Program-made: the position numbers and the translations under genes
NCBI GenBank assembly: GCA_031285625.1
Contig: JAITVV010000038.1
Location: forward strand, 1 to 56,330
DNA length: 56,330 nt
Direction: 5' to 3'
From: Prevotella sp.
Lineage (GTDB): Bacteria; Bacteroidota; Bacteroidia; Bacteroidales; Dysgonomonadaceae
Notes under the pieces: generated by a model
Seen by the model: the letters and a program-made list of their open reading frames with translations, nothing else
Told to the model about the DNA's origin: nothing
The model's database searches: none
Shown: positions 185 to 46,812 of the stretch, piece after piece
Numbering within the stretch: the stretch's first letter is position 1
How the letters are laid out: each line of letters starts with the position of its first letter

Positions 185-1113
185 AAAAAGATATAGGAAG
201 TCATATTATCAATAAATTGGACTTACAGGATATAGTCAAGGTCTTATCCGAGGAGTTAAGCGGGTCGGAGTTAAACTCCGTACTTCTGGATGTGTTTAAC
301 AAGCGTGTCGGGCAGGAAACTCCCTCGTCTTTGCTTAGTAAATATGAAAGGAATAAACTTGTGCAACCTGCCGGAATAGATGTTTTGAGCTATAAAGAAA
401 ATGAATTGACTTGTTATAAAATCTTAGCAGGTAGAGGATTTGAACCCATAGAACTTTCCCCGGTCGCTCAGTTTGGGACAAGTAGTGTTGTTGCTACGGT
501 AGACCAAAAGAAAGTCCTAACTGCAATAAGAAACACAGAAGTACAGGCAGACCCGACCAATGCAATCGCATTACATTACGCATCGTTAAAGAAAAAAGGA
601 GAATTAGATAACAAAACCTATAATTACAGTAACATTTCACGAGTAATAAGGACACAGGTATGGCATAATCCTAATTTCGTCTCTCAGCATTTTATTGTTC
701 TCGCCCTTATTTCATGTGGTAGAGATACCGGTAGCTTTAATTTTGAGAAAGAAGAACTATTAAAACATTTAACTACATCATACGAAATATGTAAAAGTTT
801 CGGTGTGGAGAAAATATATTATGAGATTATTCCGTGCAAAGGTTATGACAGTCAAAGCCCGCTTATAATGGAATCAATATCGTATGTCCGGGAAAAGAAT
901 AGTAATCTTGAGGTCTTGGTTACAGCACCAGAAGATGATAATAACTATTATCAGGGCTTTAGAATAAAGCAGCAAATAGTGATTGGCGGCAATACGATTG
1001 AAATTGCTGACGGTGGATTGCTCGATTGGACACAACTGCTTTTAACCAACAAAAAAGAGCGAATGATGACATTCGGGCTTGGTATTCAGATATTATATCA
1101 ATTAACTAAATAA
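181..1113 (+). CDS. Hypothetical protein with class II aaRS (HisRS/HisZ-like) catalytic-domain motifs
   Basis: 310 aa. GFEPIELSP, ADPT, SRVIRTQ, NYYQG, IADGG and FGLGIQIL parallel HisRS motifs in order. Confidence 0.6.
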   Translation: MKKDIGSHIINKLDLQDIVKVLSEELSGSELNSVLLDVFNKRVGQETPSSLLSKYERNKLVQPAGIDVLSYKENELTCYKILAGRGFEPIELSPVAQFGTSSVVATVDQKKVLTAIRNTEVQADPTNAIALHYASLKKKGELDNKTYNYSNISRVIRTQVWHNPNFVSQHFIVLALISCGRDTGSFNFEKEELLKHLTTSYEICKSFGVEKIYYEIIPCKGYDSQSPLIMESISYVREKNSNLEVLVTAPEDDNNYYQGFRIKQQIVIGGNTIEIADGGLLDWTQLLLTNKKERMMTFGLGIQILYQLTK

Positions 1114-1115
1114 AC

Positions 1116-1913
1116 ATGCTAAAGAGTAAAGTCATATTTGAAGATGAAGAAAAAATAAAGATTAAATATCCTTGTTTTGAATTAAAGGATATTGTTGAGT
1201 ATTATTTTGAAATATGTACTCCTAACAATTCTATAACTCCATTTTCACTTGTGGCTTTGCCAAATGCTAATATCTTAGTTTCAATTTATATCTCTGATAG
1301 TAGTCAGACATTCAAAGTACATCGTGAACATGGTATAATTGATACATCGGGTGATAAGGTATCCGGTAGCTTAACAGAAGCAATCACTGTAATACACGCA
1401 CCCGGAACCCATGAATTTTCAATAAAATTCAAGCCGGGAGTTTTGTATTCCTGTTTATCTAAAGATATTTCAACTTTGGTGGATAATCATTTGTCTCTGC
1501 AAAAGTATCTAAATCAAAAAGTAATAGACGAACTAAAAATGAAAAGCTCTTTTGCCGAGCGAGTTCAGTTTGTAGAGAATTGGCTTTTAAGTAATATGAA
1601 AATCTTTAGTTCTGATTTCAAACTCAACACTGTAATAAAAGCAATTTACTATGTCAATAATAACCGTAATTACAAATTGAACACAGTAAGTAAGGACGTT
1701 GGTGTGTCAAATCCTACACTCAATAGATATTTCAAAGAAGTATTAGGTATCTCACCCAAACAATGCTTTAAAGTTTTACGCTTTAAAACTGCATTGAAGA
1801 ACTATCGTGCAAATGGTAGTTATGATTTATACGACGAATTGGGATATACCGACTTTTCCCATTTTGTAAAAGAAGCTAAAAATTTGGCAAACACAACTCC
1901 ATCAGAATTATAA
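1116..1913 (+). CDS. AraC family transcriptional regulator
   Basis: C-terminal TLNRYFKEVLGISPK and LGYTDFSHFVKE double HTH. Confidence 0.9.
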   Translation: MLKSKVIFEDEEKIKIKYPCFELKDIVEYYFEICTPNNSITPFSLVALPNANILVSIYISDSSQTFKVHREHGIIDTSGDKVSGSLTEAITVIHAPGTHEFSIKFKPGVLYSCLSKDISTLVDNHLSLQKYLNQKVIDELKMKSSFAERVQFVENWLLSNMKIFSSDFKLNTVIKAIYYVNNNRNYKLNTVSKDVGVSNPTLNRYFKEVLGISPKQCFKVLRFKTALKNYRANGSYDLYDELGYTDFSHFVKEAKNLANTTPSEL

Positions 1914-2037
1914 CAAAAAGAGAAAGTAATAAAGACTTATTCAGAGAATGAATATTAAAAATTATCAGTTAAAACCTATATTCACTTGCTGAATTCTGTT
2001 ATATAATCACACAACTAAAATATAAGTTTTAATTGGG

Positions 2038-2067
2038 TGTTAAACAAAAAGATGTTTTTGTTTAACA
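2038..2067. terminator. Hairpin between convergent genes
   Basis: TGTTAAACAAAAA-gatg-TTTTTGTTTAACA, a perfect 13-bp stem. Confidence 0.5.
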
Positions 2068-2102
2068 GAGAAGGCTTTCTTGTTAACCGTTTTTTTGTTA
2101 TT

Positions 2103-2870
2103 CTAAAGAGTCTCATCCCTTCTCAGTTCTTCCAATAACCCGTTTTGCCGCGGTTCCCATCCCAACAGCTCTTTTGTTTTATAAGCTGTTGCCGGTTCAT
2201 CAATGGTGACGATATCCGTCATCCATTCCAGGTATTTCGGGGCTTCCTCTTTGGATACGGATTTAACCGGGACATTGAGCTTTTTGCCAATCGCTTCCGC
2301 TATATCACGCATTTTGACTCCTTCCTCGCCTACGGCATTATAACGCATGCCTTTTAATCCTTTTTCGATAGCCAGTCAGAACAGGTGGGCAGCATCCAAA
2401 CAGTGAACAGTAGGCCAGCGGTTACTACCATCGCCAATGTAAACAGACGAACCACTCTTGCGCGCCTGTTCCATTATAAGCGAGACCAGTCCGTACATAC
2501 CTTGCCCATACACCGATGGCGGAAGGCGAACCACAGATGCCTTGATATTCTTTTCAGCCAAAGTCATTGCCGCAGCTTCGGATGATCTAGGAAGTTCGGA
2601 AGCAACGTCCGCTTCGGTAGCAAATCCATTGGTTTTAGGAAGTCCGAGAATTCCTCCTGTCACAACGATAGGTTTACTTGTACCCATAAGGGCTTCGCCC
2701 ATAGCTGCGATAGCCGCTTTATCAATTTCATTGGATTTGGCAAAGTTGCTGAAATCATTGACAAAGGCCGTATGCAATACCGCATCAGCCAGAGATACTC
2801 CCTGTTTCAGAATATCGAGGTCTTCAAGACTTCCCTTTAAAACCGAGGCTCCGGCATCAGTCGCCCCGAG
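2103..2870 (-). pseudogene. NAD-dependent epimerase/SDR oxidoreductase pseudogene
   Basis: GSLEDLDILKQG..VLHTAF..VVRLPPSVYG..RWPTVH. In-frame TGA at 2376-2378 (AHLF*LAIEKG) joins ORFs 2376..2981 and 2103..2348. The N-terminal GxxGxxG is missing, replaced by unrelated sequence beyond about 2870. Confidence 0.85.
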
Positions 2871-3071
2871 GCTTGCCTGTTCCCCTGCCCGAAGTGTAAA
2901 GAGGTATCCTGCAACGAAAACGACTGACCCGACGATGACGCATATCTTCAAACCAAAACAAGCATCCCTGATTAACATCAAGAATGCTTGTTTTCATTTT
3001 ATGCGTAAGTAGCAACTTCAACTCCCTTTCCTTAGAATCTGCATATCTATTATTCTATTTTTCATCTTCCT

Positions 3072-3371
3072 TTAGAAAGGCAGTTCCGGCGATCGGTAGT
3101 TATCATACAGTACCTGTTGAAGTTCTTTCTCGGGATAAAGTATTTTTCCTCCAATGGCCGTATAGCAGATCATCCGCTTATCACGCAAGGTCTGAAGCGT
3201 TCGAGGCGAGATATGGAGATACTCCATGACTTCCTCCCCACTCAGATAGAGTTCATCTGCCAATGTTGGGTGATGCTTGTCTCGAACATCCTGCACATCG
3301 TTCAAGGCTTGCTCTATTTGCCCTTCGAGTTCCTTGAACTCTTCGGACTTATAATTGATAAATTTGTCCAT
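3072..3371 (-). CDS. Excisionase-like helix-turn-helix protein (HTH_17 type) typical of Bacteroidota conjugative elements
   Basis: YLSGEEVMEYLHISPRTLQTLRDKRMICYTAIGGKILY. Confidence 0.9.
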   Translation of the reverse strand: MDKFINYKSEEFKELEGQIEQALNDVQDVRDKHHPTLADELYLSGEEVMEYLHISPRTLQTLRDKRMICYTAIGGKILYPEKELQQVLYDNYRSPELPF

Positions 3372-3373
3372 CG

Positions 3374-3661
3374 CTATTTGTTTGTATACTTCATATCGGT
3401 TTTTAGCAACTCAGAAATATCCTCTTCTTTGTAATAGACTTTACCACCCAACATTGAAAATGGTATCTTGCCATTGTTTCGCCACGTTTGCAGTGTACGT
3501 TTCGAGATGCCCAAAGCGCGGCAGACATCTGCCGAATCCATTCAGTCGTCTCTGGGGTTGGTACAATATAACTCTTTCAAAGCATTAGCTTCAGAAGTGA
3601 GCCTGTGAATCTGCTTTTTCAGCAATTCCCATGTGTGCAAATCAACACATACAATCTCCAT
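3374..3661 (-). pseudogene. Second excisionase-like HTH gene with a nonsense codon
   Basis: Not in the ORF track. Hand translation: MEIVCVDLHTWELLKKQIHRLTSEANALKELYCTNPRDD*MDSADVCRALGISKRTLQTWRNNGKIPFSMLGGKVYYKEEDI. TGA at 3542-3544 sits where Trp is expected. Confidence 0.85.
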
Positions 3662-3679
3662 TTTTTTAGTTTTAAATTG

Positions 3680-4469
3680 ATGGCTTTTTCGACCGAAGAT
3701 TTCACACCCCTAACCCCTACACCTGCCGGAAGAAAGAATATCTATTTCCCGAATCTTACGGAGGTAACCATCACTTCTAACAAAGAAAATGATAAATTGG
3801 AGCTGCCTCTCGGACTGAAATTCGGTATGAACTTCGAAGAAGTACTAAAAACACTTGGCAAGCCTACACTTGATAGACGTAATAATCCTCGTTACAACGT
3901 ATTTGGTGGATGTTCATGGGGAAATCACATTAAAAGAAAATCCGGATAACAGATACTATAATGTAGAACTCTTTATAGATACAACAAAGCCGGACGAATT
4001 TGTATTAAAAGAATTCACTATTCAGACTAAACGCTGGACAGAGACTTTCCCTCTGAACTATGTCCTGGAAGGGCAAAGTGCATTTAAAGACTGGTCGAAA
4101 CCTAACAAGACAACCCATTTTGTAGAATGGGCTATCAAAAGAAACTTTTTTGTAGAAACAGCTAAGAATAAAGAAGGAATAGACAAAATCCGTAAGGGTG
4201 AAATAACAGGCGTTGAGTTTGTGAAAGAGCATTACAGCAACTTTCCTGCTATTTATGAAGATGAATTCAGCCCCGAAATACAATATTTTACACTCTGTTA
4301 TATAAACCGTTTAGGAGGTGATATATGGTATGATACAGATACTAAATACCTGTACGAAACATTAGGGGACAAATACAATCAGGAAGCTGTGGAGAAAGTA
4401 ATAGACCAACGTCTGGAAGAATTTACTCCGGAAAATGAGTTCCGAAACAGCAAGCAATTAGGAGAGTAA
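3680..4469 (+). pseudogene. Frameshifted hypothetical protein, possibly toxin-immunity-like; may be 5' truncated
   Basis: LPLGLKFGMNFEEVLKTLGKP followed by FVEWAIKRNFF..IRKGEITGVEFV. Removing one G from GGGG at 3918-3921 fuses the two ORFs (CSW-EITLKEN). Confidence 0.65.
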
Positions 4470-4510
4470 TAGCCCCTGAATAGATACGAACCTAAATAAA
4501 ATATATAATT

Positions 4511-5272
4511 ATGCTGACAATACCCAAAATACTAGATACCCCGGAGTTCTTAAAGAAAGAGGGTAGTATTAAATGGGATGTTGAAAAATATCCTGACTAC
4601 TTCACTTATAACATAAAAAACGAAAAGCTGCTTGATGCCATTTGTCTTCTAAATCATAAAGCGACACTTGGCATCGTTGCTGCCTGTAGTGAATGGGTGT
4701 TCTGGCGATTCAGTAAAGAACGCCGGGTAGATAATGCCATCAATTCAATAGAGGCTCTCTGGCTGGCTATAGTAGACAAACGATACCTTCTGAATTGGAA
4801 GTACACAAGTTCTAAGGGTGAAACCATGTATGCAAATATATTATGGATTATTTTCAACAACCATCTTTTTATTCGAGATAATTATAAAAAAGGGGACTAC
4901 CAAATGCAGTTTCGCGTAGTTAATATGATAATGCTTGCACGCCATATAACTCCCAATCAGAAGATGTTTGATACTTGGCTCAACGACTGTCTGAAACGTT
5001 CGCTCAAATTGTTTCCTGCTCAATACGACCGGTGGGAAGTCCGAGACGATAAAAAGAAATATTCGCAACCATACGATTCAACTTCTGAACCACCCATTCC
5101 TCGTGAATTTTATTTCGAACCCGGTTTCGATTACCAAACAGCAGATATTCATGCCTTATTAAAAAAGTTCGTAGATGAAATCGATATTTCTATTGCAACT
5201 TTCTTTTTTACTCCCGAGAAGATGCTTGAACAAGGTTTTGAAGGCACGCCCTACAAATATGAACCGAAATAA
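4511..5272 (+). CDS. Hypothetical protein, array paralog 1
   Basis: MLTIPKILDTPEFL...LNHKATLG..SEWVFWR...LARHITP...FPAQYDR...GFEGTPYKYEPK. Confidence 0.85.
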   Translation: MLTIPKILDTPEFLKKEGSIKWDVEKYPDYFTYNIKNEKLLDAICLLNHKATLGIVAACSEWVFWRFSKERRVDNAINSIEALWLAIVDKRYLLNWKYTSSKGETMYANILWIIFNNHLFIRDNYKKGDYQMQFRVVNMIMLARHITPNQKMFDTWLNDCLKRSLKLFPAQYDRWEVRDDKKKYSQPYDSTSEPPIPREFYFEPGFDYQTADIHALLKKFVDEIDISIATFFFTPEKMLEQGFEGTPYKYEPK

Positions 5273-5281
5273 ATCGGAATA

Positions 5282-6517
5282 ATGACAGATAAACTAGAAC
5301 AAGTACAGGCTTTATATGAAGCAGACAAATATGAAGATGCAGTAGACCTCATAGAAAATATACTGAACGAAGACGAAGCTTATCGTGATTCATTCTTTCT
5401 TAATGGAAAATTACTCAATGAACAAAGCCTGTCGGCTCTATACCTGAAAGGGAAAATATACTACGAATGTGAAGATTATAGCGAAGCCGAAGAAGCATTG
5501 TCCGAGATACCCGAATCACATCATAATTACTACGATGCAGTTTTTATGCGCAGTAAAATGTTTTTCGATACAGGTGATTATGAAGAATCACTCGAACTGT
5601 ATGAAAGCATACCTCAATCCTCCGATAAATATTTTGAGGCACAGCATGGAATCGCATTGGTACATTGTGCGCAAGATGATCATCAAACCGCATTGGATGT
5701 ACTGAATTCGATTCCATTAGATGATAATAACTTCGGGAATATAATAAACAGTATTGCCCATATATACAGGGATTTGGGAAACAAAGAAAAAGAAATGGAG
5801 TATTATGACAAGGTTCCTGTAACGGATTCTGCCTATGGAATGGTGCTGCCAATGCACTTTCGATGTCTCTGTCTTCGTTGAGTTGTGCGGCTTTCGAGAT
5901 TTGCACTGGCAACTATCCCTGAGCACGATCAATGTTATTTCAATAGCATACAGAAAGCTTCACAAATACTGATGAAAGCTAGCTGAACAGACGAAGCTCT
6001 CGAACTTTGGCTCAAAATACCTGCCACGAGCGAATATTATAATACTGCGCTTTATTACAGAGCAAGTATTCTTGCCGAATCGGATAATCATCAGGCGGCA
6101 TTAGACGAACTGGAAAAGATACCCCAACTGGCTCAGGGTTATTTGAGTGTATTGGAGTTGAAGGCTAAAATATACCGCGATTTGAAAAACGAAGAAATGG
6201 CTGCCAAATATAACTTGTGGTATTATATTCTCGAAGAAAATTGGTGTATGGACCGAAAGTTGAACTCTTGCATCTTTGCTCAGGCCACACCGCAACAGCA
6301 ACTCGAATTCTGGGACAGCATCTTACCATCAAGCACCGAATACTATTATGCTATCCTGAAAAAAGCGTTGGTTTACAAAAAGGAACTGAAAGACTTTGAT
6401 ACAGCCCGCCGGATATTAGATACGATTCCGGCAGAAGGGCGTAAATGGCTCGAAGAGGAATACCGTTTCGACTTTAAGAAAGTAGAGTCATTTGAAGAAA
6501 AAAATGAAAATAAATAA
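5282..6517 (+). pseudogene. TPR-repeat protein disrupted by an internal inversion and a nonsense codon
   Basis: Repeats of about 34 aa (A...L..IP.....Y). ORFs at 5282 and 6143 share a frame. Stops at 5879-5881 (inside the inverted segment) and 5984-5986. Confidence 0.85.
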
Positions 6518-6532
6518 TTAAAATACAAAATT

Positions 6533-7306
6533 ATGCTAACCATACCTAACATATTAAATACACCAGAATTTTTAGATGCACCGTTAGACTATAAGTGGGA
6601 TAGAAAATTATCAGACTATCATGCAGTAGATGCTATGAATGACAAATTAGGAGTTGCTCTGTTTGCTCTAAATCATAAATCTACCTTTGGGATTGCTGCT
6701 GCTCTGTCCGAATGGATATATTGGCGTTTATCCAAACATATTAATATTCCGGAAATAGTGCCTATTTTAGAAGCACAATGGGCTGCAGATATTGATAAAC
6801 GCTATTCCTACTTGTGGGAGTTTAGAGATGCCGCGAAAATAGATGCTGAACAAAGGAAGGCCTATAATACGATATGGGTAATGCTTTGGATATTAGACAC
6901 ACCGAAATTTGCTTATTTTGATGGACGGTTTTTCATTAATCTAAATATAGATAAGTTAGCCATATTAGCCCGTTATATATCGCCCGACAAAAAGATGTTT
7001 GACGCCTGGTATGACAATGTGTTTAAAAGAGCAGCCAAACTATTCCCTGCACAATACGACCGTTCGGAAATAATGGAGAACAGAAGTGCTTATCAAGGTA
7101 AAACCTATGATTCCTCCGGTGAGCCTGTTATTTCAAGAGAGTTTTTCTGGGATGAGAAATTTGATTATCAAACGGCAGATAATACGAGATTGATAAATGA
7201 TTTTCTATCCGGTTTGGATTATGAAAATAATCCATATCTTAATTCTCCTGATAAAATGCTTGAGTTAGGCTTCAAAGGCACACCCTACCAATACGAACCA
7301 AAATAA
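6533..7306 (+). CDS. Hypothetical protein, array paralog 2
   Basis: MLTIPNILNTPEFL...LNHKSTFG..SEWIYWR...FPAQYDR...GFKGTPYQYEPK. Confidence 0.85.
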   Translation: MLTIPNILNTPEFLDAPLDYKWDRKLSDYHAVDAMNDKLGVALFALNHKSTFGIAAALSEWIYWRLSKHINIPEIVPILEAQWAADIDKRYSYLWEFRDAAKIDAEQRKAYNTIWVMLWILDTPKFAYFDGRFFINLNIDKLAILARYISPDKKMFDAWYDNVFKRAAKLFPAQYDRSEIMENRSAYQGKTYDSSGEPVISREFFWDEKFDYQTADNTRLINDFLSGLDYENNPYLNSPDKMLELGFKGTPYQYEPK

Positions 7307-7319
7307 AAATATTACAATT

Positions 7320-8129
7320 ATGCTGACAATACCAAAGATACTAGATACACCTGAGTTTTTAGATGCACCGTTAGGTTATAAATGGGATAAAAACTCTGCC
7401 GGATATTATTCGGTAGATGCAGAGAATGAAAAAATAGTGGATGCTTTGTGGCAATTAAATCATAAAGCGACGTATGGTCTTGCAACAGCTTTAGGAGAAT
7501 GGATTTATTGGCGATCGTCGAAATATATAAATAAAGAAACGACTCTTCTCGCTTTAGAAGCACAATGGGCAGGATTAGTCCATTACTTATATGGTGTAAA
7601 TTGGAAATTTGGAAATGAATATATTTCCACTCCGGTTGATGGTCCCTTTTGGGCTATGATGACTTGTATGCAAGATTGCAGGGAGAGTTATATGACAGGT
7701 GACTATTTCATTAACTCAAAAACAGATAATTTAGCTATATTGGCCCGCCATATTTCACCCGATAAAGAATTTTTTGACACTTGGCTTAATAATATATTAC
7801 ACACTTCTTCGAATTTATTTCCGGCAAGATATGACCGACAGGAGATCTTTGAAAATATGGATGATTATGAAGATAAATATTATGATTCGACGGACGAACC
7901 GGCAATCCCTCGCCAGTTCTTCTGGGAACCGGATTATAGTTTTGAGAACGAAGATAATGTAAAACTCATAAATGATTTTTTATCAAATCTAGACTACAAA
8001 AATAATACATTTTTATCATCTCCAAGATCGTTGTTAAAGCGTAATTTCAAAGGCACACCCTATATACGAACCCCAGTGAATAAGATAAACATAATCATAT
8101 TAAAATGCGCTGAAAGGTTTGAATGGTAA
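7320..8129 (+). CDS. Hypothetical protein, array paralog 3 (extreme C-terminus frameshifted)
   Basis: Same motifs. CCC TAT A TAC GAA CCC CAG TGA shows a 2-nt loss that shifts the YEP ending out of frame. Confidence 0.85.
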   Translation: MLTIPKILDTPEFLDAPLGYKWDKNSAGYYSVDAENEKIVDALWQLNHKATYGLATALGEWIYWRSSKYINKETTLLALEAQWAGLVHYLYGVNWKFGNEYISTPVDGPFWAMMTCMQDCRESYMTGDYFINSKTDNLAILARHISPDKEFFDTWLNNILHTSSNLFPARYDRQEIFENMDDYEDKYYDSTDEPAIPRQFFWEPDYSFENEDNVKLINDFLSNLDYKNNTFLSSPRSLLKRNFKGTPYIRTPVNKINIIILKCAERFEW

Positions 8130-8150: not shown

Positions 8151-8183
8151 AAAAAACTCATTGATTTTTCAATGAGTTTTTTT
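8151..8183. terminator. Bidirectional intrinsic terminator
   Basis: AAAAAACTCATTGA-tttt-TCAATGAGTTTTTTT between convergent genes. Confidence 0.8.
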
Positions 8184-8210: not shown

Positions 8211-8960
8211 TTATTTTTTGAGTATTCTCGTTAAATAAGTGACATCTAATAAATTCACCGTCTCAAAATTTCCTTTATAAAATACAGCCCAGTTATTAAA
8301 AACACAGGGTAATTCCTTGGCTTTTTGTAGAGTATCCACTTGCATTAATGATACAGGAAGCTTATTCATTTCACAATACTGCTTTATCATTTCAATACTT
8401 TGATAGACATAGGGGCATTGCATATCATAATAAATTGTTAGCTCTTTGTTTTCAATCCCTTGGCCTTTGACACTTGGTGAAAACTTTGGCTTTGCTCCAT
8501 CAAAAGAAAGGGCAAGCAACTCATATCCATTATCAGTAGTATCAACAACTTCAAAACCGAACTTCTTCGCAAATGATTGATCTGTAAGCCAGTTTTTTTG
8601 CTTTTTTGCTCCGAGCATACAAATGCCGGACCTACCTTTTTCTTTAGCATCGGCCACGCAATACTCCATCAGCGATTTTCCATATCCTTTTCCTTTATGA
8701 TTACCCAAAGCCCATAAGCAATACAGATAATAATAATTATTACCGGTTATAGGAACCCAAGCCATTTCAAGCGGAGCATATTCAATAAAGACGGTAGCTT
8801 TTGCCTTTAATTTTCTAAAAACATGCCCTTCATTTAGTCGGTCAGAAAGCCATTGTCGTTTAGCCTCAATACCTTGATGAGGCTTTTTACTACGGATAAT
8901 ACAGCATAAATGCTCATCAGCGAGATTTTCTGTTGTTATGTTTATAAAATCAGTATCCAT
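8211..8960 (-). CDS. GNAT acetyltransferase with YoaP-like C-terminal domain
   Basis: FIEYAP, KGKGYGKSL, QCPY, PCVFNNWAVFYKG. Confidence 0.85.
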   Translation of the reverse strand: MDTDFINITTENLADEHLCCIIRSKKPHQGIEAKRQWLSDRLNEGHVFRKLKAKATVFIEYAPLEMAWVPITGNNYYYLYCLWALGNHKGKGYGKSLMEYCVADAKEKGRSGICMLGAKKQKNWLTDQSFAKKFGFEVVDTTDNGYELLALSFDGAKPKFSPSVKGQGIENKELTIYYDMQCPYVYQSIEMIKQYCEMNKLPVSLMQVDTLQKAKELPCVFNNWAVFYKGNFETVNLLDVTYLTRILKK

Positions 8961-11698: not shown

Positions 11699-12466
11699 TT
11701 AAAACAAGTCCGCTATTTTAATATCTGGATTATGGTATTGCAATCTACCTTTAGATCTGCCTAAGCTAATTGCATTTTTAGGACACCAGTGTACACAAGC
11801 ATGGCATGACTGACAGTTTACACTCCATTGTGGTTTTTTATTTTTTATTGATATATTATTCACAGGACATACTTTACTGCATATACCACAACCAATACAA
11901 TTATCATCTGAGGTTATTTTTTTATAAGTGTCCTTGAAAAAAATATTGAACATGCTTTTATGTAATTTCTCAGACACTCCGCAATATTTAGACGGCTGTA
12001 TTTCAGTTTTATCTTTTATATCATTGGCTATTTTATCTGTAATTGTATCTGCACGTTCCAATATAGCCGGTCTTTTCACTGCAGAAACTTCATATTCTTT
12101 TAAACAATTTCCCACTGTAGGAACATAGTTACCATAATTTAAGCTGACTCCCTTATTGTTTAATATCTTGTTGACTACCGATAAAGTACTTCCTTTGTAA
12201 GTATAGTATGTGGCTATGGAAAAATAATATACATTGTCTTGAAATGGAAAATCTTCCAAAAAACGATAGACTATATCAGGCACTCCTCCCATATAAACAG
12301 GGAATACAAATCCGACGATAGATGAGTCAGGATGTTCTGTCACATTCATTCTGTTTATTTTCACTAATTTCGATTGTTCATATAAGGAAGCTATTACTGA
12401 TGCTGCCTTTAGGCTGTTACCTGTTGCCGAGAAATAATAAATTATAATTTTTTCATTTGTTTTCAT
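11699..12466 (-). CDS. EFR1-type flavodoxin/4Fe-4S ferredoxin
   Basis: YFSATGNS, GFVFPVY, two CxxCxxCxxxCP motifs. Confidence 0.9.
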   Translation of the reverse strand: MKTNEKIIIYYFSATGNSLKAASVIASLYEQSKLVKINRMNVTEHPDSSIVGFVFPVYMGGVPDIVYRFLEDFPFQDNVYYFSIATYYTYKGSTLSVVNKILNNKGVSLNYGNYVPTVGNCLKEYEVSAVKRPAILERADTITDKIANDIKDKTEIQPSKYCGVSEKLHKSMFNIFFKDTYKKITSDDNCIGCGICSKVCPVNNISIKNKKPQWSVNCQSCHACVHWCPKNAISLGRSKGRLQYHNPDIKIADLF

Positions 12467-12608
12467 ATCGGTTTATTTGCACATAATAATAAAGTTACTT
12501 ACTTTTAGAAAGTGTAAAAGTATTTACTTATATACTAAAAAGCAAGAACTTACAATATGAATCGTTACTTACCTATTGGTTTGAATTATTGAAATACAAG
12601 AATTTATA

Positions 12609-12971
12609 ATGGAACAATTTTTGAAAAAATATCCCTATACGGAAAATTGTCCGTTTAGGATGGTTATGGAACATTTCGGTAATAAGTGGTCTATGATTAT
12701 ATTAATTACTTTGGGCGAAAACGGGAAAATGAGATTTAATGAACTGGATAAATGTATTGTTGATATCTCGCAGAAGGTACTCACAAGTACACTCAGGACA
12801 TTAGAGAAAGACGGGTTTGTGAAAAGGAAAATGTATTCCGAAATTCCACCAAGAGTCGAGTATAAACTTACTGCATTAGGTATGGATTTGTTACCGTTAA
12901 TTGAACGTTTTGCTGATTGGTCTTATGATCACATCGATGAAATAAAAAAGGCACAGACACGAAAAGTATAA
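12609..12971 (+). CDS. HxlR family transcriptional regulator
   Basis: CP...GNKWSMII..RFNEL..ISQKVLT..PPRVEYKLT. Divergent from the flavodoxin gene. Confidence 0.92.
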   Translation: MEQFLKKYPYTENCPFRMVMEHFGNKWSMIILITLGENGKMRFNELDKCIVDISQKVLTSTLRTLEKDGFVKRKMYSEIPPRVEYKLTALGMDLLPLIERFADWSYDHIDEIKKAQTRKV

Positions 12972-13034
12972 TTTTCATATTTTCAGTAATGTAAGATAAC
13001 TCTCAAATAAAATCATTCCATGTAAAAAAATCAA

Positions 13035-13952
13035 TCATTTAGTAAATAATAATTTATTCTTACTAATTATCATTACGCTAAGCAATATCACAATCAATCC
13101 TACTATCTGGATCCATGTTACATCTTCATTTCCAAGAAACATTCCCAGAAAAACAGCCACAAACGGATTGACGTATGCGTGGGTAGCCACTTCTGTTGCC
13201 GGGCGTACTTTGAGTAACCACACATATGCAGAATAAGCCATAATGGAACCGAATATTATCAGGTATACTAATGAAAGCCACGAATAAATAGGCACCAGAT
13301 GAATATCGGTGTGCACAATATCACCATTGACGATCGTACACATCCAGAATGCTGCACTCGCAAAAAGCATCTGCCAGGCTGATCCTGCAAAGGCATTGAC
13401 CTCTTCCTCACCCGATGACCTATATTTGGCGTATAACGTCCCCAATGCCCAAGAAATACAACCAACAAGTAATAATAACACCCCATACTCACGGTGTTCT
13501 CCAAGAGCATTATCGTAATTGAACTGCTCAATATACAACATCATCACCCCCAGAAAACCGATAATAATACCGATGACTACTGCCGGATTGCGAAAATTCT
13601 TTTTCCACATAGGTGCATCCAGCGCCATAATCCAGATAGCAGTCGAACTGGCAATGATAGCCACAAGGCTACTGCTAACATATTTCTGCGCCAGCATCAC
13701 TACTGCCATATCTATAAACAACAGCACAATGCCACTAATAGCAGATTTCTTAATCAGCCTCTTCTTGAAAATGGGTTCGCCCCTGAATTTGCACCACGCC
13801 AGAAGTAAAAGTCCGGCAGCAGTAAAACGAAGAGCACCCAGCAGAAATGGCGGTAATCCTTTGAGGGCTACACCTATAAAATAATAAGTGGAGCCCCAGA
13901 CTACATATATCAGAAAGTAAGCAATAATAATGTTTATTCTCCGAACTTCCAT
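13035..13952 (-). CDS. EamA/DMT family transporter
   Basis: VVWGSTY, RFTAAG, AYVNPFVAVFLG; about 10 hydrophobic segments. Confidence 0.9.
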   Translation of the reverse strand: MEVRRINIIIAYFLIYVVWGSTYYFIGVALKGLPPFLLGALRFTAAGLLLLAWCKFRGEPIFKKRLIKKSAISGIVLLFIDMAVVMLAQKYVSSSLVAIIASSTAIWIMALDAPMWKKNFRNPAVVIGIIIGFLGVMMLYIEQFNYDNALGEHREYGVLLLLVGCISWALGTLYAKYRSSGEEEVNAFAGSAWQMLFASAAFWMCTIVNGDIVHTDIHLVPIYSWLSLVYLIIFGSIMAYSAYVWLLKVRPATEVATHAYVNPFVAVFLGMFLGNEDVTWIQIVGLIVILLSVMIISKNKLLFTK

Positions 13953-25459: not shown

Positions 25460-25600
25460 AATAATCAGATACATCTTCCTTTTATCTACAATTACCCAAA
25501 TAATACTATCTTATTGTCTAAAATTAAGTTCTGTATGGTATTACTTATAGAAGTTAGAGGCGAAGAAAAAGTAATGAGGGGAGACTATAAAGACAAACTC

Positions 25601-26131
25601 CTCTACTGATAAATCGGCATCTTCCATAACGATGTTGGCTGATTTTCCTCCCAACTCCAAAGTAACCCGTTTGAGTGTTTCCGCTCCATCGCGTGCAATT
25701 GTTTTCCCGACAAGGGTTGAGCCTGCAAAAGATATTTTGGCAATATTGGGGTTGCGGGTTATTTCTGCTCCGACTACATTTCCTAAGCCGTTTACAATAT
25801 TGAATACTCCTTTAGGTAGACCCGCTTCGTGCAGGCATTCAGTAATCACCTGTGTTTGCAGGGCGCTCATTTCACTGGGTTTAATTACTGCCGTACAGCC
25901 TGCTGCAATAGCAGTAGATAGTTTGGTGCAGATATATCCGTTACTGGCGTTCCATGGGATAATGATGCCGACCACACCTACCGGGTTGAGTGTTATAACG
26001 GCATTGCCCATTTTCTTAGTAAACTCAAAATGTTTCACAATCTCAATATTGACGAATATGGAGCTATTGCATAGTGAAAGGAGGAGGCTGCAAACTGTAC
26101 AGGGGCTCCATACTCTTCAACCATTATGTCG
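25601..26131 (-). pseudogene. Aldehyde dehydrogenase fragment
   Basis: PVGVVGIIIPWN, IKPSE, FAGST, LELGGKSA. Ends before the catalytic Cys. Upstream DIMVEEYGAP lies in another frame. Confidence 0.88.
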
Positions 26132-46425: not shown

Positions 46426-46812
46426 TCAATTTCCAGTATTATATAAACCGATATATTTCAACCCATTATAATTATCAAGATACGGTTCATTTATTATGAC
46501 CGAAGCATCGGTAATGTAAAAAACAGCGTTTGCTTTATTTATGTTTTTATTTTTACATTCATTGATAACTGATTCAATTTCATTGTCATCAAGAACTACT
46601 TCAGTTAATATTTCTTTTATATCGATCTCTTTTTCAAATAAGGGAATAATAGCCATAAAATCTTCGTCATATTCCTCTATTCCAATATCAAGGCAAAACG
46701 GACAAGTTCCATTGTCCTGATCAAAATATTTATAATAATCGTCTTCTGGCAGTAATGTATTTCCAATCCAGATATGTACCTTTTTCATTCTGTCTAAAGC
46801 ATGCATGTACAT
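46426..46812 (-). CDS. Immunity protein 22 (Imm22)-like
   Basis: VHIWIG..FCLDIGIEEYDEDF..NAVF..LKYIG. Confidence 0.75.
   Translation of the reverse strand: MYMHALDRMKKVHIWIGNTLLPEDDYYKYFDQDNGTCPFCLDIGIEEYDEDFMAIIPLFEKEIDIKEILTEVVLDDNEIESVINECKNKNINKANAVFYITDASVIINEPYLDNYNGLKYIGLYNTGN

Follow-up and report, generated by a model that had tools for sequence, protein, structure and literature searches.

A toxin-less tandem array of probable immunity genes from an unnamed all-alpha protein family in a termite-gut Dysgonomonas genome

We analyzed a stretch of 56,330 nucleotides (the window, positions 1 to 56,330 of the forward strand of contig JAITVV010000038.1, GenBank assembly GCA_031285625.1) from a bacterium deposited as Prevotella sp. 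and assigned to the Dysgonomonadaceae. Between positions 3680 and 8129, the window holds a tandem array with three paralogous genes of a protein family without a name. We use FAM as the label for this family, copies 1, 2, and 3 for its members in the array, and X for a putative toxin that precedes relatives of FAM in other genomes. A first-pass annotation had proposed that the array holds an undescribed family of immunity proteins, or else anti-phage sensors, diversified by recombination and carried on a mobile element. The features of the array and of its immediate surroundings are collected in Table 1.

Table 1. Features of the FAM array and its surroundings (coordinates are those of the window)
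Feature	Coordinates	Strand	Description
Remnant of an integrative mobilizable element	2861-3681	-	HTH_17 (excisionase-like) genes 3072-3371, intact, and 3374-3661, with one in-frame stop
First gene of the unit	3680-4469	+	Frameshifted: two overlapping open reading frames, 3605-3949 and 3855-4469; last codons run into the 3'-end relic
Relic of a FAM 3' end, ATACGAACCTAAATAA	4484-4499	+	16 nt, outside any FAM open reading frame, between the first gene and copy 1
FAM copy 1	4511-5272	+	253 aa; clade A; predicted orphan immunity protein
Acidic TPR gene	5282-6517	+	In-frame stops; open parts 5282-5881 and 6143-6517; TPR-like frame resumes after the stops
FAM copy 2	6533-7306	+	257 aa; clade A; predicted orphan immunity protein; copy used for the structural model
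FAM copy 3	7320-8129	+	269 aa; clade A; changed, extended C-terminal tail after GTPY
Hairpin terminator	8151-8182	.	14-bp stem; A run before, U run after; shared with the convergent gene 8211-8960

All the genes of the array are encoded on the same strand and are separated by intergenic gaps of 41, 9, 15, and 13 nt. The three FAM open reading frames (ORFs) are open over the full length of the family and keep its near-invariant residues. Relative to copy 1, identity is 43% for copy 2 and 40% for copy 3, and the latter two are 50% identical to each other. The shared motifs that had been pointed out in the three proteins (LNHK, EWxxWR, LARxIxP, FPAxYDR, PxIxRxF, and GTPY) were all found in the three ORFs, together with the divergent middle parts, and the AATTATG described in front of the starts is present at all three copies. 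When 124 members of the family are compared, the most variable blocks are residues 91 to 140 and 181 to 190, and the most conserved block is residues 201 to 257 (copy 2 numbering). The gene termini had been described as nearly identical. They are similar, but not to that degree at the DNA level, as the first 60 nt are 78 to 80% identical, with synonymous differences, and a 17-nt end motif (TTCAAAGGCACACCCTA) shows 82 to 100% identity, so that the similarity reflects conservation of the protein and not near-identity of the DNA. In copy 3, a small deletion has removed the usual ...YEPK* end, and the reading frame runs 16 residues further.

Two other genes share the unit. The first, already described as an immunity-like pseudogene, is indeed split over two frames and is weakly similar to DUF7832 (PF25191, E value of 1.6e-4, 22.2 bits, below the cutoff of 27); its structural match to DUF7832 in the Atlas has a template modeling (TM) score of 0.38. 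The second, located between copies 1 and 2, is the acidic TPR gene of the first-pass annotation, with a pI of 4.33 in its N-terminal part and matches to TPR_19 (E value of 2.9e-12) and 25 other families, nearly all of them repeat families. No relatives of either gene were found in any of the FAM loci that we fetched. The strong terminator that had been placed at the end of the unit was confirmed by folding (ΔG of -17.6 kcal/mol, z score of -4.5, 0 of 200 shuffled sequences as stable); a consensus terminator scan missed this hairpin. The GC content of the array (0.373) shows no skew with respect to that of the contig (0.365).

FAM is a large family, as a profile built from 16 close relatives matched 537 clusters at an E value of ≤0.001 in a library of 1.84 billion representative proteins, with 338 of them reaching 1e-10 and 55 reaching 1e-30. 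Most members are stand-alone proteins of 230 to 260 aa with an acidic pI (4.4 to 6.2; that of copy 1 is 7.6), and the only name given to them in any source is "hypothetical protein." Scans of the three copies against Pfam, NCBIfam, and PADLOC gave no match, and a Pfam scan of 124 diverse members at an E value of ≤1 returned single chance rows, none of them recurrent. Among metagenomic proteins we also observed fused forms, specifically, a FAM-FAM-TPR protein of 926 aa (P0063), a FAM-LRR protein of 416 aa, and two FAM-FAM proteins (listed as P0063, P0044, P0097, and P0030). Some of these may be gene-calling artifacts across tandem copies. The TPR part of P0063 shows no specific kinship with the TPR gene of the window (best E value of 0.32).

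The AlphaFold2 model of copy 2 is all-alpha, with 13 helices, a predicted local distance difference test score (pLDDT) of 97.0, and a predicted TM score of 0.94. Foldseek against the PDB gave a best E value of 0.23 at a TM score of 0.14, which is meaningless, and a sequence search against the PDB retrieved only chance helical rows, like haemagglutinin HA2. With an exhaustive structural aligner, the best rows were two DUF416 structures, 2q9r_A (Z score of 7.7, root mean square deviation [rmsd] of 3.6, 147 residues aligned) and 3f7c_A (Z score of 7.0, rmsd of 4.1, 137 aligned), followed by chain B of 7jtu (Z score of 4.8, rmsd of 4.0, 131 aligned); as all of these values are under the caution or noise level of the tool for helical proteins, they can be taken as leads only. 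Feature comparison in the Atlas gave DUF416 (0.87) and Imm6 (0.85) as leads, both below the bar of 0.9. PF14434 and PF04222 remained unmatched by the three copies at an E value of ≤0.1 and by the 124 members at an E value of ≤1. When 61 genomes were searched for DUF416, a single match was obtained, and a search with DUF416 against the PDB by sequence did not retrieve 7jtu.

The expectation that homologs of the array proteins would be found beside PAAR or VgrG effectors was borne out by the profile searches, since relatives lie directly behind X, a PAAR-like-linked protein with a deaminase motif, including in type VI secretion system (T6SS) clusters. A Peptococcaceae metagenome-assembled genome (MAG; G402) contains 24 FAM matches on 12 contigs, almost always as tandem pairs. 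Directly upstream of FAM, five of these contigs code for a full-length X of about 210 to 250 aa, which is followed by a FAM pair on contigs C101, C112, C113, and C115 and by a single FAM near the contig end on C24. On four further contigs, a fragment of X occupies this position (one of the matches is weak, with an E value of 0.0014), a layout that is the pattern of orphan toxin-tip/immunity modules. Eight of the nine X-FAM loci of this MAG have Tox-PAAR-like matches, and X comes after the Tox-PAAR-like domain, with both fused in one shared frame at one locus (C101). On contigs C112, C113, C115, C24, and C44, the PAAR-like matches extend across a single TGA stop.

The second group of toxin-linked relatives is found in Burkholderiaceae. 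All three FAM-holding chromids (3/3) show the gene order Hcp, VgrG, DUF6484, HEAT, DUF2169, a protein of 345 to 346 aa, a PAAR-like protein of 130 aa, X, FAM, and FAM, adjoining T6SS core genes. VgrG and Hcp are located upstream of the module on one chromid and downstream, on the opposite strand, on the two others. Within the Burkholderiaceae collection, X and FAM are confined to these identical three records.

The PCxxC motif is present in all eight X sequences, accompanied by HxE in six, by CAE in one, and by an ambiguous version in the other. Together, H/C-x-E and PCxxC make up the zinc motif by which members of the deaminase superfamily are known. X matched no Pfam deaminase family at an E value of ≤1, and a PDB sequence search returned one row, with an E value of 4.4. 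The structural model of X, built from five sequences only, has a pLDDT of 67.9, and its full-domain matches are blasticidin-S deaminase (Z score of 9.1, 121 aligned), SsdA (Z score of 8.7, 144/156 aligned), and cytidine deaminase (Z score of 8.6); the other structural rows match a helical hairpin only. Given the motif and these deaminase-fold rows, we take X to be, most likely, a toxin with a deaminase fold from a family not yet described, with deaminase activity predicted from both. A word-index search for further relatives of X retrieved four proteins, all of the same MAG lineage.

FAM also occurs in genomes that lack X. The genome that carries the array is 94.25% complete and holds only the three FAM genes; the profiles of X and of PF13665 (Tox-PAAR-like), which gave 10 and 8 matches, respectively, in G402 as a positive control, had no match in it. 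The claim that the array contains no toxin gene therefore holds for its own genes and, for these two profiles, for the whole genome, and with X and PAAR-like genes both missing there, the array can be classed as putative orphan immunity. Among the sequence runs listed as containing it, one termite-gut metagenome run, which may be its source, is the only DNA run, and there is no RNA run. The X profile was likewise unmatched in the FAM-containing genomes of Orbaceae, Dysgonomonas hofstadii, Listeria, and Flavobacterium, and no PAAR-like match was found in D. hofstadii or Flavobacterium johnsoniae. The Orbaceae genome has nine tandem FAM copies, located between prophage tail-fiber genes (DUF2612 and phage_tail_N) and umuDC; D. 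hofstadii has three copies; Listeria has a FAM pair and, in addition, a fusion of FAM to WG repeats that adjoins a SUKH-1 immunity gene.

Some details of these loci were recorded. The Orbaceae array (L004) is bracketed by paralogous, apparently membrane proteins of 219 aa (4694-5353 and 12724-13383), which are 58% identical and have a weak YcxB-like match. In D. hofstadii (L006), the array is followed (12004-12753) by a gene of 130 aa that we could not assign and by a DUF4262 gene (E value of 1.9e-37), in a chromosomal setting unlike that of the window and without the HTH_17 module. The WG fusion of Listeria farberi (G403 contig C31, L169) is an 834-aa ORF (1761-4265, reverse strand), open at the contig end, with WG-containing beta repeats and a C-terminal FAM, and downstream of it lies an SMI1/KNR4 (SUKH-1) immunity-type gene (482-1066, reverse strand). 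This locus looks, from its gene content, like a poly-immunity locus in a Gram-positive genome without X.

The distribution of the family is patchy, with FAM in 2 of 35 genomes of the host genus, in 4 of 401 sampled Bacteroidota genomes, and in 1 of 401 genomes of the phylum of G402 (G402 itself). In Flavobacterium and other Flavobacteriaceae, we found 71 loci with one FAM copy each (one with two copies and one broken), and a metagenome scan retrieved mostly single copies of this Flavobacterium type, without adding any toxin context.

A maximum-likelihood tree of 42 FAM copies divides the family into two deep clades, A and B, each with 100/99 support. The division follows the gene order at the toxin loci, as the toxin-proximal copies belong to clade A in 9 of 9 cases and the distal copies to clade B in 8 of 8. 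One gene of G402 is a B-A fusion. Flavobacterium, D. hofstadii, and the window have clade A only, the Listeria pair has the order A B, and the nine Orbaceae copies follow the order A A A A B A A A B. Copy 1 of the window is sister to copy 3 of D. hofstadii (65% identity over 249 columns), in a group that also contains Orbaceae copies 1 to 4. Copies 2 and 3 group with Orbaceae copies 6 to 8, with ORB_6 as the nearest relative of copy 3 (53% identity). As the copies of the window are nearer to copies from Orbaceae or from another Dysgonomonas than to each other, they represent old lineages rather than products of recent local recombination, and their grouping across phyla indicates that the subtypes are older than their spread across phyla. 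The X sequences of G402 form two groups, {C112, C115, C113} and {C24, C101}, that match the groups of their proximal A copies, which hints at codiversification of X and FAM-A, weakly, since only two groups are involved.

Co-folding with a candidate effector had been suggested for the array proteins, and we predicted the complex of X with its proximal clade A FAM from contig C112 of G402, using alignments of 5 rows for X and 107 for FAM. The pair passed with a score of 0.86, and the best of three controls scored 0.00. The score mark is reached by 116 of 157 solved complexes and by 2 of 215 mismatched pairs, counts that hold only roughly here because the alignments were self-made and that of X has 5 rows. 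The runs agreed in at least 84% of the contacts, and the partner had a pLDDT of at least 87. On the toxin side, the predicted contacts lie in residues 188 to 200 and 237 to 251 and include the loop W188-H195 ahead of PCxxC, the initial Cys of this motif, and the C-terminal helix; on the FAM-A side, they fall in residues 24 to 45, 101 to 143, and 180 to 188. Mean column entropy is 3.63 bits at the predicted FAM contacts (29 positions) versus 2.57 bits elsewhere (208 positions), with a Mann-Whitney p of about 1e-11 that is overstated, as the sequences are related. Similarly, the three paralogs of the window are invariant at 3 of 32 contact positions versus 69 of 212 others. As the predicted contacts coincide with the most variable positions, the "variable core" of the first-pass annotation corresponds to the predicted specificity surface. 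Neither X nor FAM resembles in sequence the chains of 7jtu, a solved deaminase-immunity complex.

A predicted complex speaks for binding of X only, and T6SS accessory modules carry FAM next to DUF2169 and PAAR-like genes, so it could be thought of as a secretion adaptor or chaperone that loads X onto the PAAR-like/VgrG spike and has no role in immunity. We consider this quite unlikely, since an adaptor would be expected together with its effector, whereas FAM is kept without X and PAAR-like genes in the host of the array, in D. hofstadii, and in F. johnsoniae, without X in L. farberi, and in toxin-less arrays of up to 9 copies. The location of FAM downstream of the toxin and a predicted contact that covers the zinc-motif region of X also speak against this role.

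We therefore think that the three paralogs are probably orphan immunity proteins of the all-alpha FAM family, belonging to its clade A and acting against X-type deaminase toxins. The proposal that this orphan array without a toxin holds immunity proteins of an undescribed family has thus been strengthened, both by the relatives behind PAAR-like-linked X and by the complex prediction. For the clade A relatives at the toxin loci, the immunity role is suggested by their position and by the modeled complex. In toxin-bearing loci, the order is PAAR-like domain, X, FAM-A, and FAM-B, and FAM-A would bind X over its zinc and active-site region, blocking and neutralizing it. The specificity surface of FAM-A would be formed by variable helices and loops in the middle of the protein, at about residues 24 to 45, 95 to 140, and 177 to 188. 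The host of the array makes no X of its own and keeps three divergent FAM-A genes in one co-oriented unit, which, if expressed, would presumably let it survive X-type toxins injected by its gut neighbors.

Several observations weigh against this reading. The toxin linkage was seen in two lineages only (one MAG and three related chromids), and random genome samples added no toxin-linked loci. Clade B, the regular companion of clade A beside X, is not present in the window. The modeled fold of FAM is without a clear solved relative, the deaminase assignment of X combines a motif with a middling model, and the calibration of the complex score is rough. Two genes of the unit are broken and the tail of copy 3 is damaged, so the locus may be decaying. 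Finally, the Flavobacterium copy is located between an aldehyde dehydrogenase gene and rsmG/GidB in 68 of the 71 loci, which looks like long vertical retention rather than acquisition as an island and would allow for a different function in the cell.

This last point touches on the possibility that FAM is a distant DUF416/YjaG-like protein with a general cellular role, whose adjacency to toxins would be incidental or secondary. The single syntenic copy in Flavobacterium would be as expected, and DUF416 provided both the best structural rows (Z scores of 7.7 and 7.0) and the first Atlas lead (0.87). However, a protein of general function is hard to reconcile with a family that so few genomes of the genus and of the Bacteroidota contain, that has expanded in tandem, that shares subtypes across phyla, and that holds a fixed position behind X, and none of the 124 members matched DUF416 even at an E value of ≤1. 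We regard this explanation as unlikely. We give still less weight to the idea that the locus is a decaying remnant without present function. It would account for the frameshifted first gene, the broken TPR gene, the stop in one HTH gene, and the tail of copy 3, but three FAM frames that are full-length and open, with their near-invariant residues in place, make it very improbable.

The anti-phage sensor that the first-pass annotation had kept as an alternative to immunity fared worse. Tandem, diversified paralogs adjoining a TPR gene are compatible with a defense or sensor system, as are the FAM-TPR and FAM-LRR fusions, each seen once in metagenomes. Nevertheless, none of the copies matched a PADLOC family (E value of ≤0.1), the TPR gene gave weak generic TPR rows (best E value of 0.0011), no FAM match was found in phage records or viral contigs, and neither an effector, nor a nuclease partner, nor defense genes were found in the window. 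Toxin linkage fits the data better, and we see almost no likelihood for the anti-phage explanation.

With regard to mobility, the array had been described as carried on a mobile element, which is only partly supported. It adjoins a 0.8-kb module of HTH_17 genes (E value of 4.5e-9) that is 81 to 92% identical to multicopy modules in congeners, where tyrosine integrases flank them on one side and a 310-aa gene, MobC/NikA, and a relaxase on the other. Nonetheless, the ORFs scanned in the window (including 45 others) had no match to integrase (Phage_integrase), relaxase, or transfer families, and the GC content of the array equals that of the contig. As the HTH pair is all that is left, with no integrase or relaxase, the array abuts the vestige of a mobilizable element, and its present mobility is not supported.

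The other proposed process, recombination between conserved termini, has the 3'-end relic in front of copy 1 as its sole trace. Its pattern recurs at the ends of copy 1 (5257-5272) and copy 2 (7291-7306), giving three occurrences in the window versus 0.01 expected, and suggests that a former FAM copy was replaced up to its conserved 3' end. Against this, there is no long identical DNA between the copies, which represent old lineages, and diversification by this route is only weakly supported.

A more ambitious scenario would join these elements. FAM-A and FAM-B may be an ancient, paralogous two-protein antidote to an undescribed clade of PAAR-like-delivered nucleic acid deaminases, in which A alone would carry the specificity through its hypervariable contact surface, and toxin-less A cassettes may pass between insect-gut bacteria of different phyla (Dysgonomonas, Orbaceae, and Peptococcaceae), exchanged at their conserved 5' and 3' ends with no dedicated recombinase involved. 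As a whole this is speculative, and we would sooner doubt it than rely on it. If it is true, the relic at 4484-4499 records one such swap.

Other genes of the contig deserve a brief mention. Flanking the HTH module, positions 2103 to 2981 (reverse strand) contain two adjacent ORFs of 81 and 201 aa, the larger being weakly similar to NAD-epimerase/SDR and L-PSP proteins; this is probably a broken SDR-type gene, and the GC content of 2000-3680 is 0.437. A gene of 128 aa at 46426-46812 (reverse strand) matches Pfam DUF4284, "Immunity protein 22" (E value of 1e-20), and is located between a CAT-family acetyltransferase gene and an unannotated gene of 267 aa. It is set among housekeeping genes and looks like a second, unrelated orphan immunity-type gene. 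The 165-aa ORF at 25541-26038 (reverse strand) covers only positions 117 to 251 of the 461-position aldehyde dehydrogenase profile and is probably a gene fragment.

Known systems offer several points of comparison. Acquired interbacterial defense (AID) clusters are stockpiles of orphan T6SS immunity genes in Bacteroidales (bioRxiv 10.1101/471110). The array is similar to them in being a co-oriented cluster of immunity-type genes, in a Bacteroidales genome without the matching toxin, patchy within its genus and adjoining mobile-element sequence. It differs in that FAM is not among the immunity families described there and has no Pfam Imm match, in that X is PAAR-like-linked and was seen in Burkholderiaceae and a Peptococcaceae MAG and is no Bacteroidales T6SS effector, and in that the host comes from a termite-gut metagenome and has no intact integrative and conjugative element. 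A related type, the recombinase-associated rAID-1, is defined by a XerD-like tyrosine recombinase at the 5' side followed by at least two co-oriented genes with a GC content of ≤41% (bioRxiv 10.1101/471110). The array resembles this type in its five co-oriented low-GC genes (0.373) with short, similar AT-rich spacers, but it has no 5' XerD-like recombinase, as the genes upstream are of the HTH_17 type, and for this reason it is not a rAID-1 cluster.

The closest functional parallel is SsdA, a T6SS toxin that deaminates single-stranded DNA, whose immunity protein SsdAI is described as exclusively alpha-helical and as covering the active site (PMC7901873, PMC12494967). The order of a predicted deaminase-fold toxin (X) followed by an all-alpha immunity-type protein (FAM) is shared, whereas FAM has about 250 aa versus 193 for SsdAI and occurs as a paralogous A-B pair, and the loop that is SGW in BaDTF2 is of the DWR type in X. 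From its length of 193 residues, we infer that chain B of 7jtu is SsdAI; its structural match to FAM (Z score of 4.8) is within noise, and the two had no sequence match at an E value of ≤10. FAM shares its all-alpha nature with DUF416 (YjaG family; 2q9r and 3f7c) and with Pfam Imm6 as well. Imm6 is linked to deaminase toxins.

The analysis gives FAM, with at least 537 clusters that are all called hypothetical, a testable role, together with a partner toxin family that Pfam does not recognize. Deaminase toxins and their inhibitors (DddA/DddI and SsdA/SsdAI) have already been made into base editors, so a new clade of predicted deaminase toxins with a natural set of inhibitors would be of practical interest for base editing. 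The grouping of copies across phyla points to a circulation of common antidote subtypes among phyla that live together in insect guts. FAM adds a new family to a kind of system that is already known, with a partner toxin family that is also undescribed, and the array would extend the stockpiling of orphan immunity genes from human-gut Bacteroides to termite-gut Dysgonomonas.

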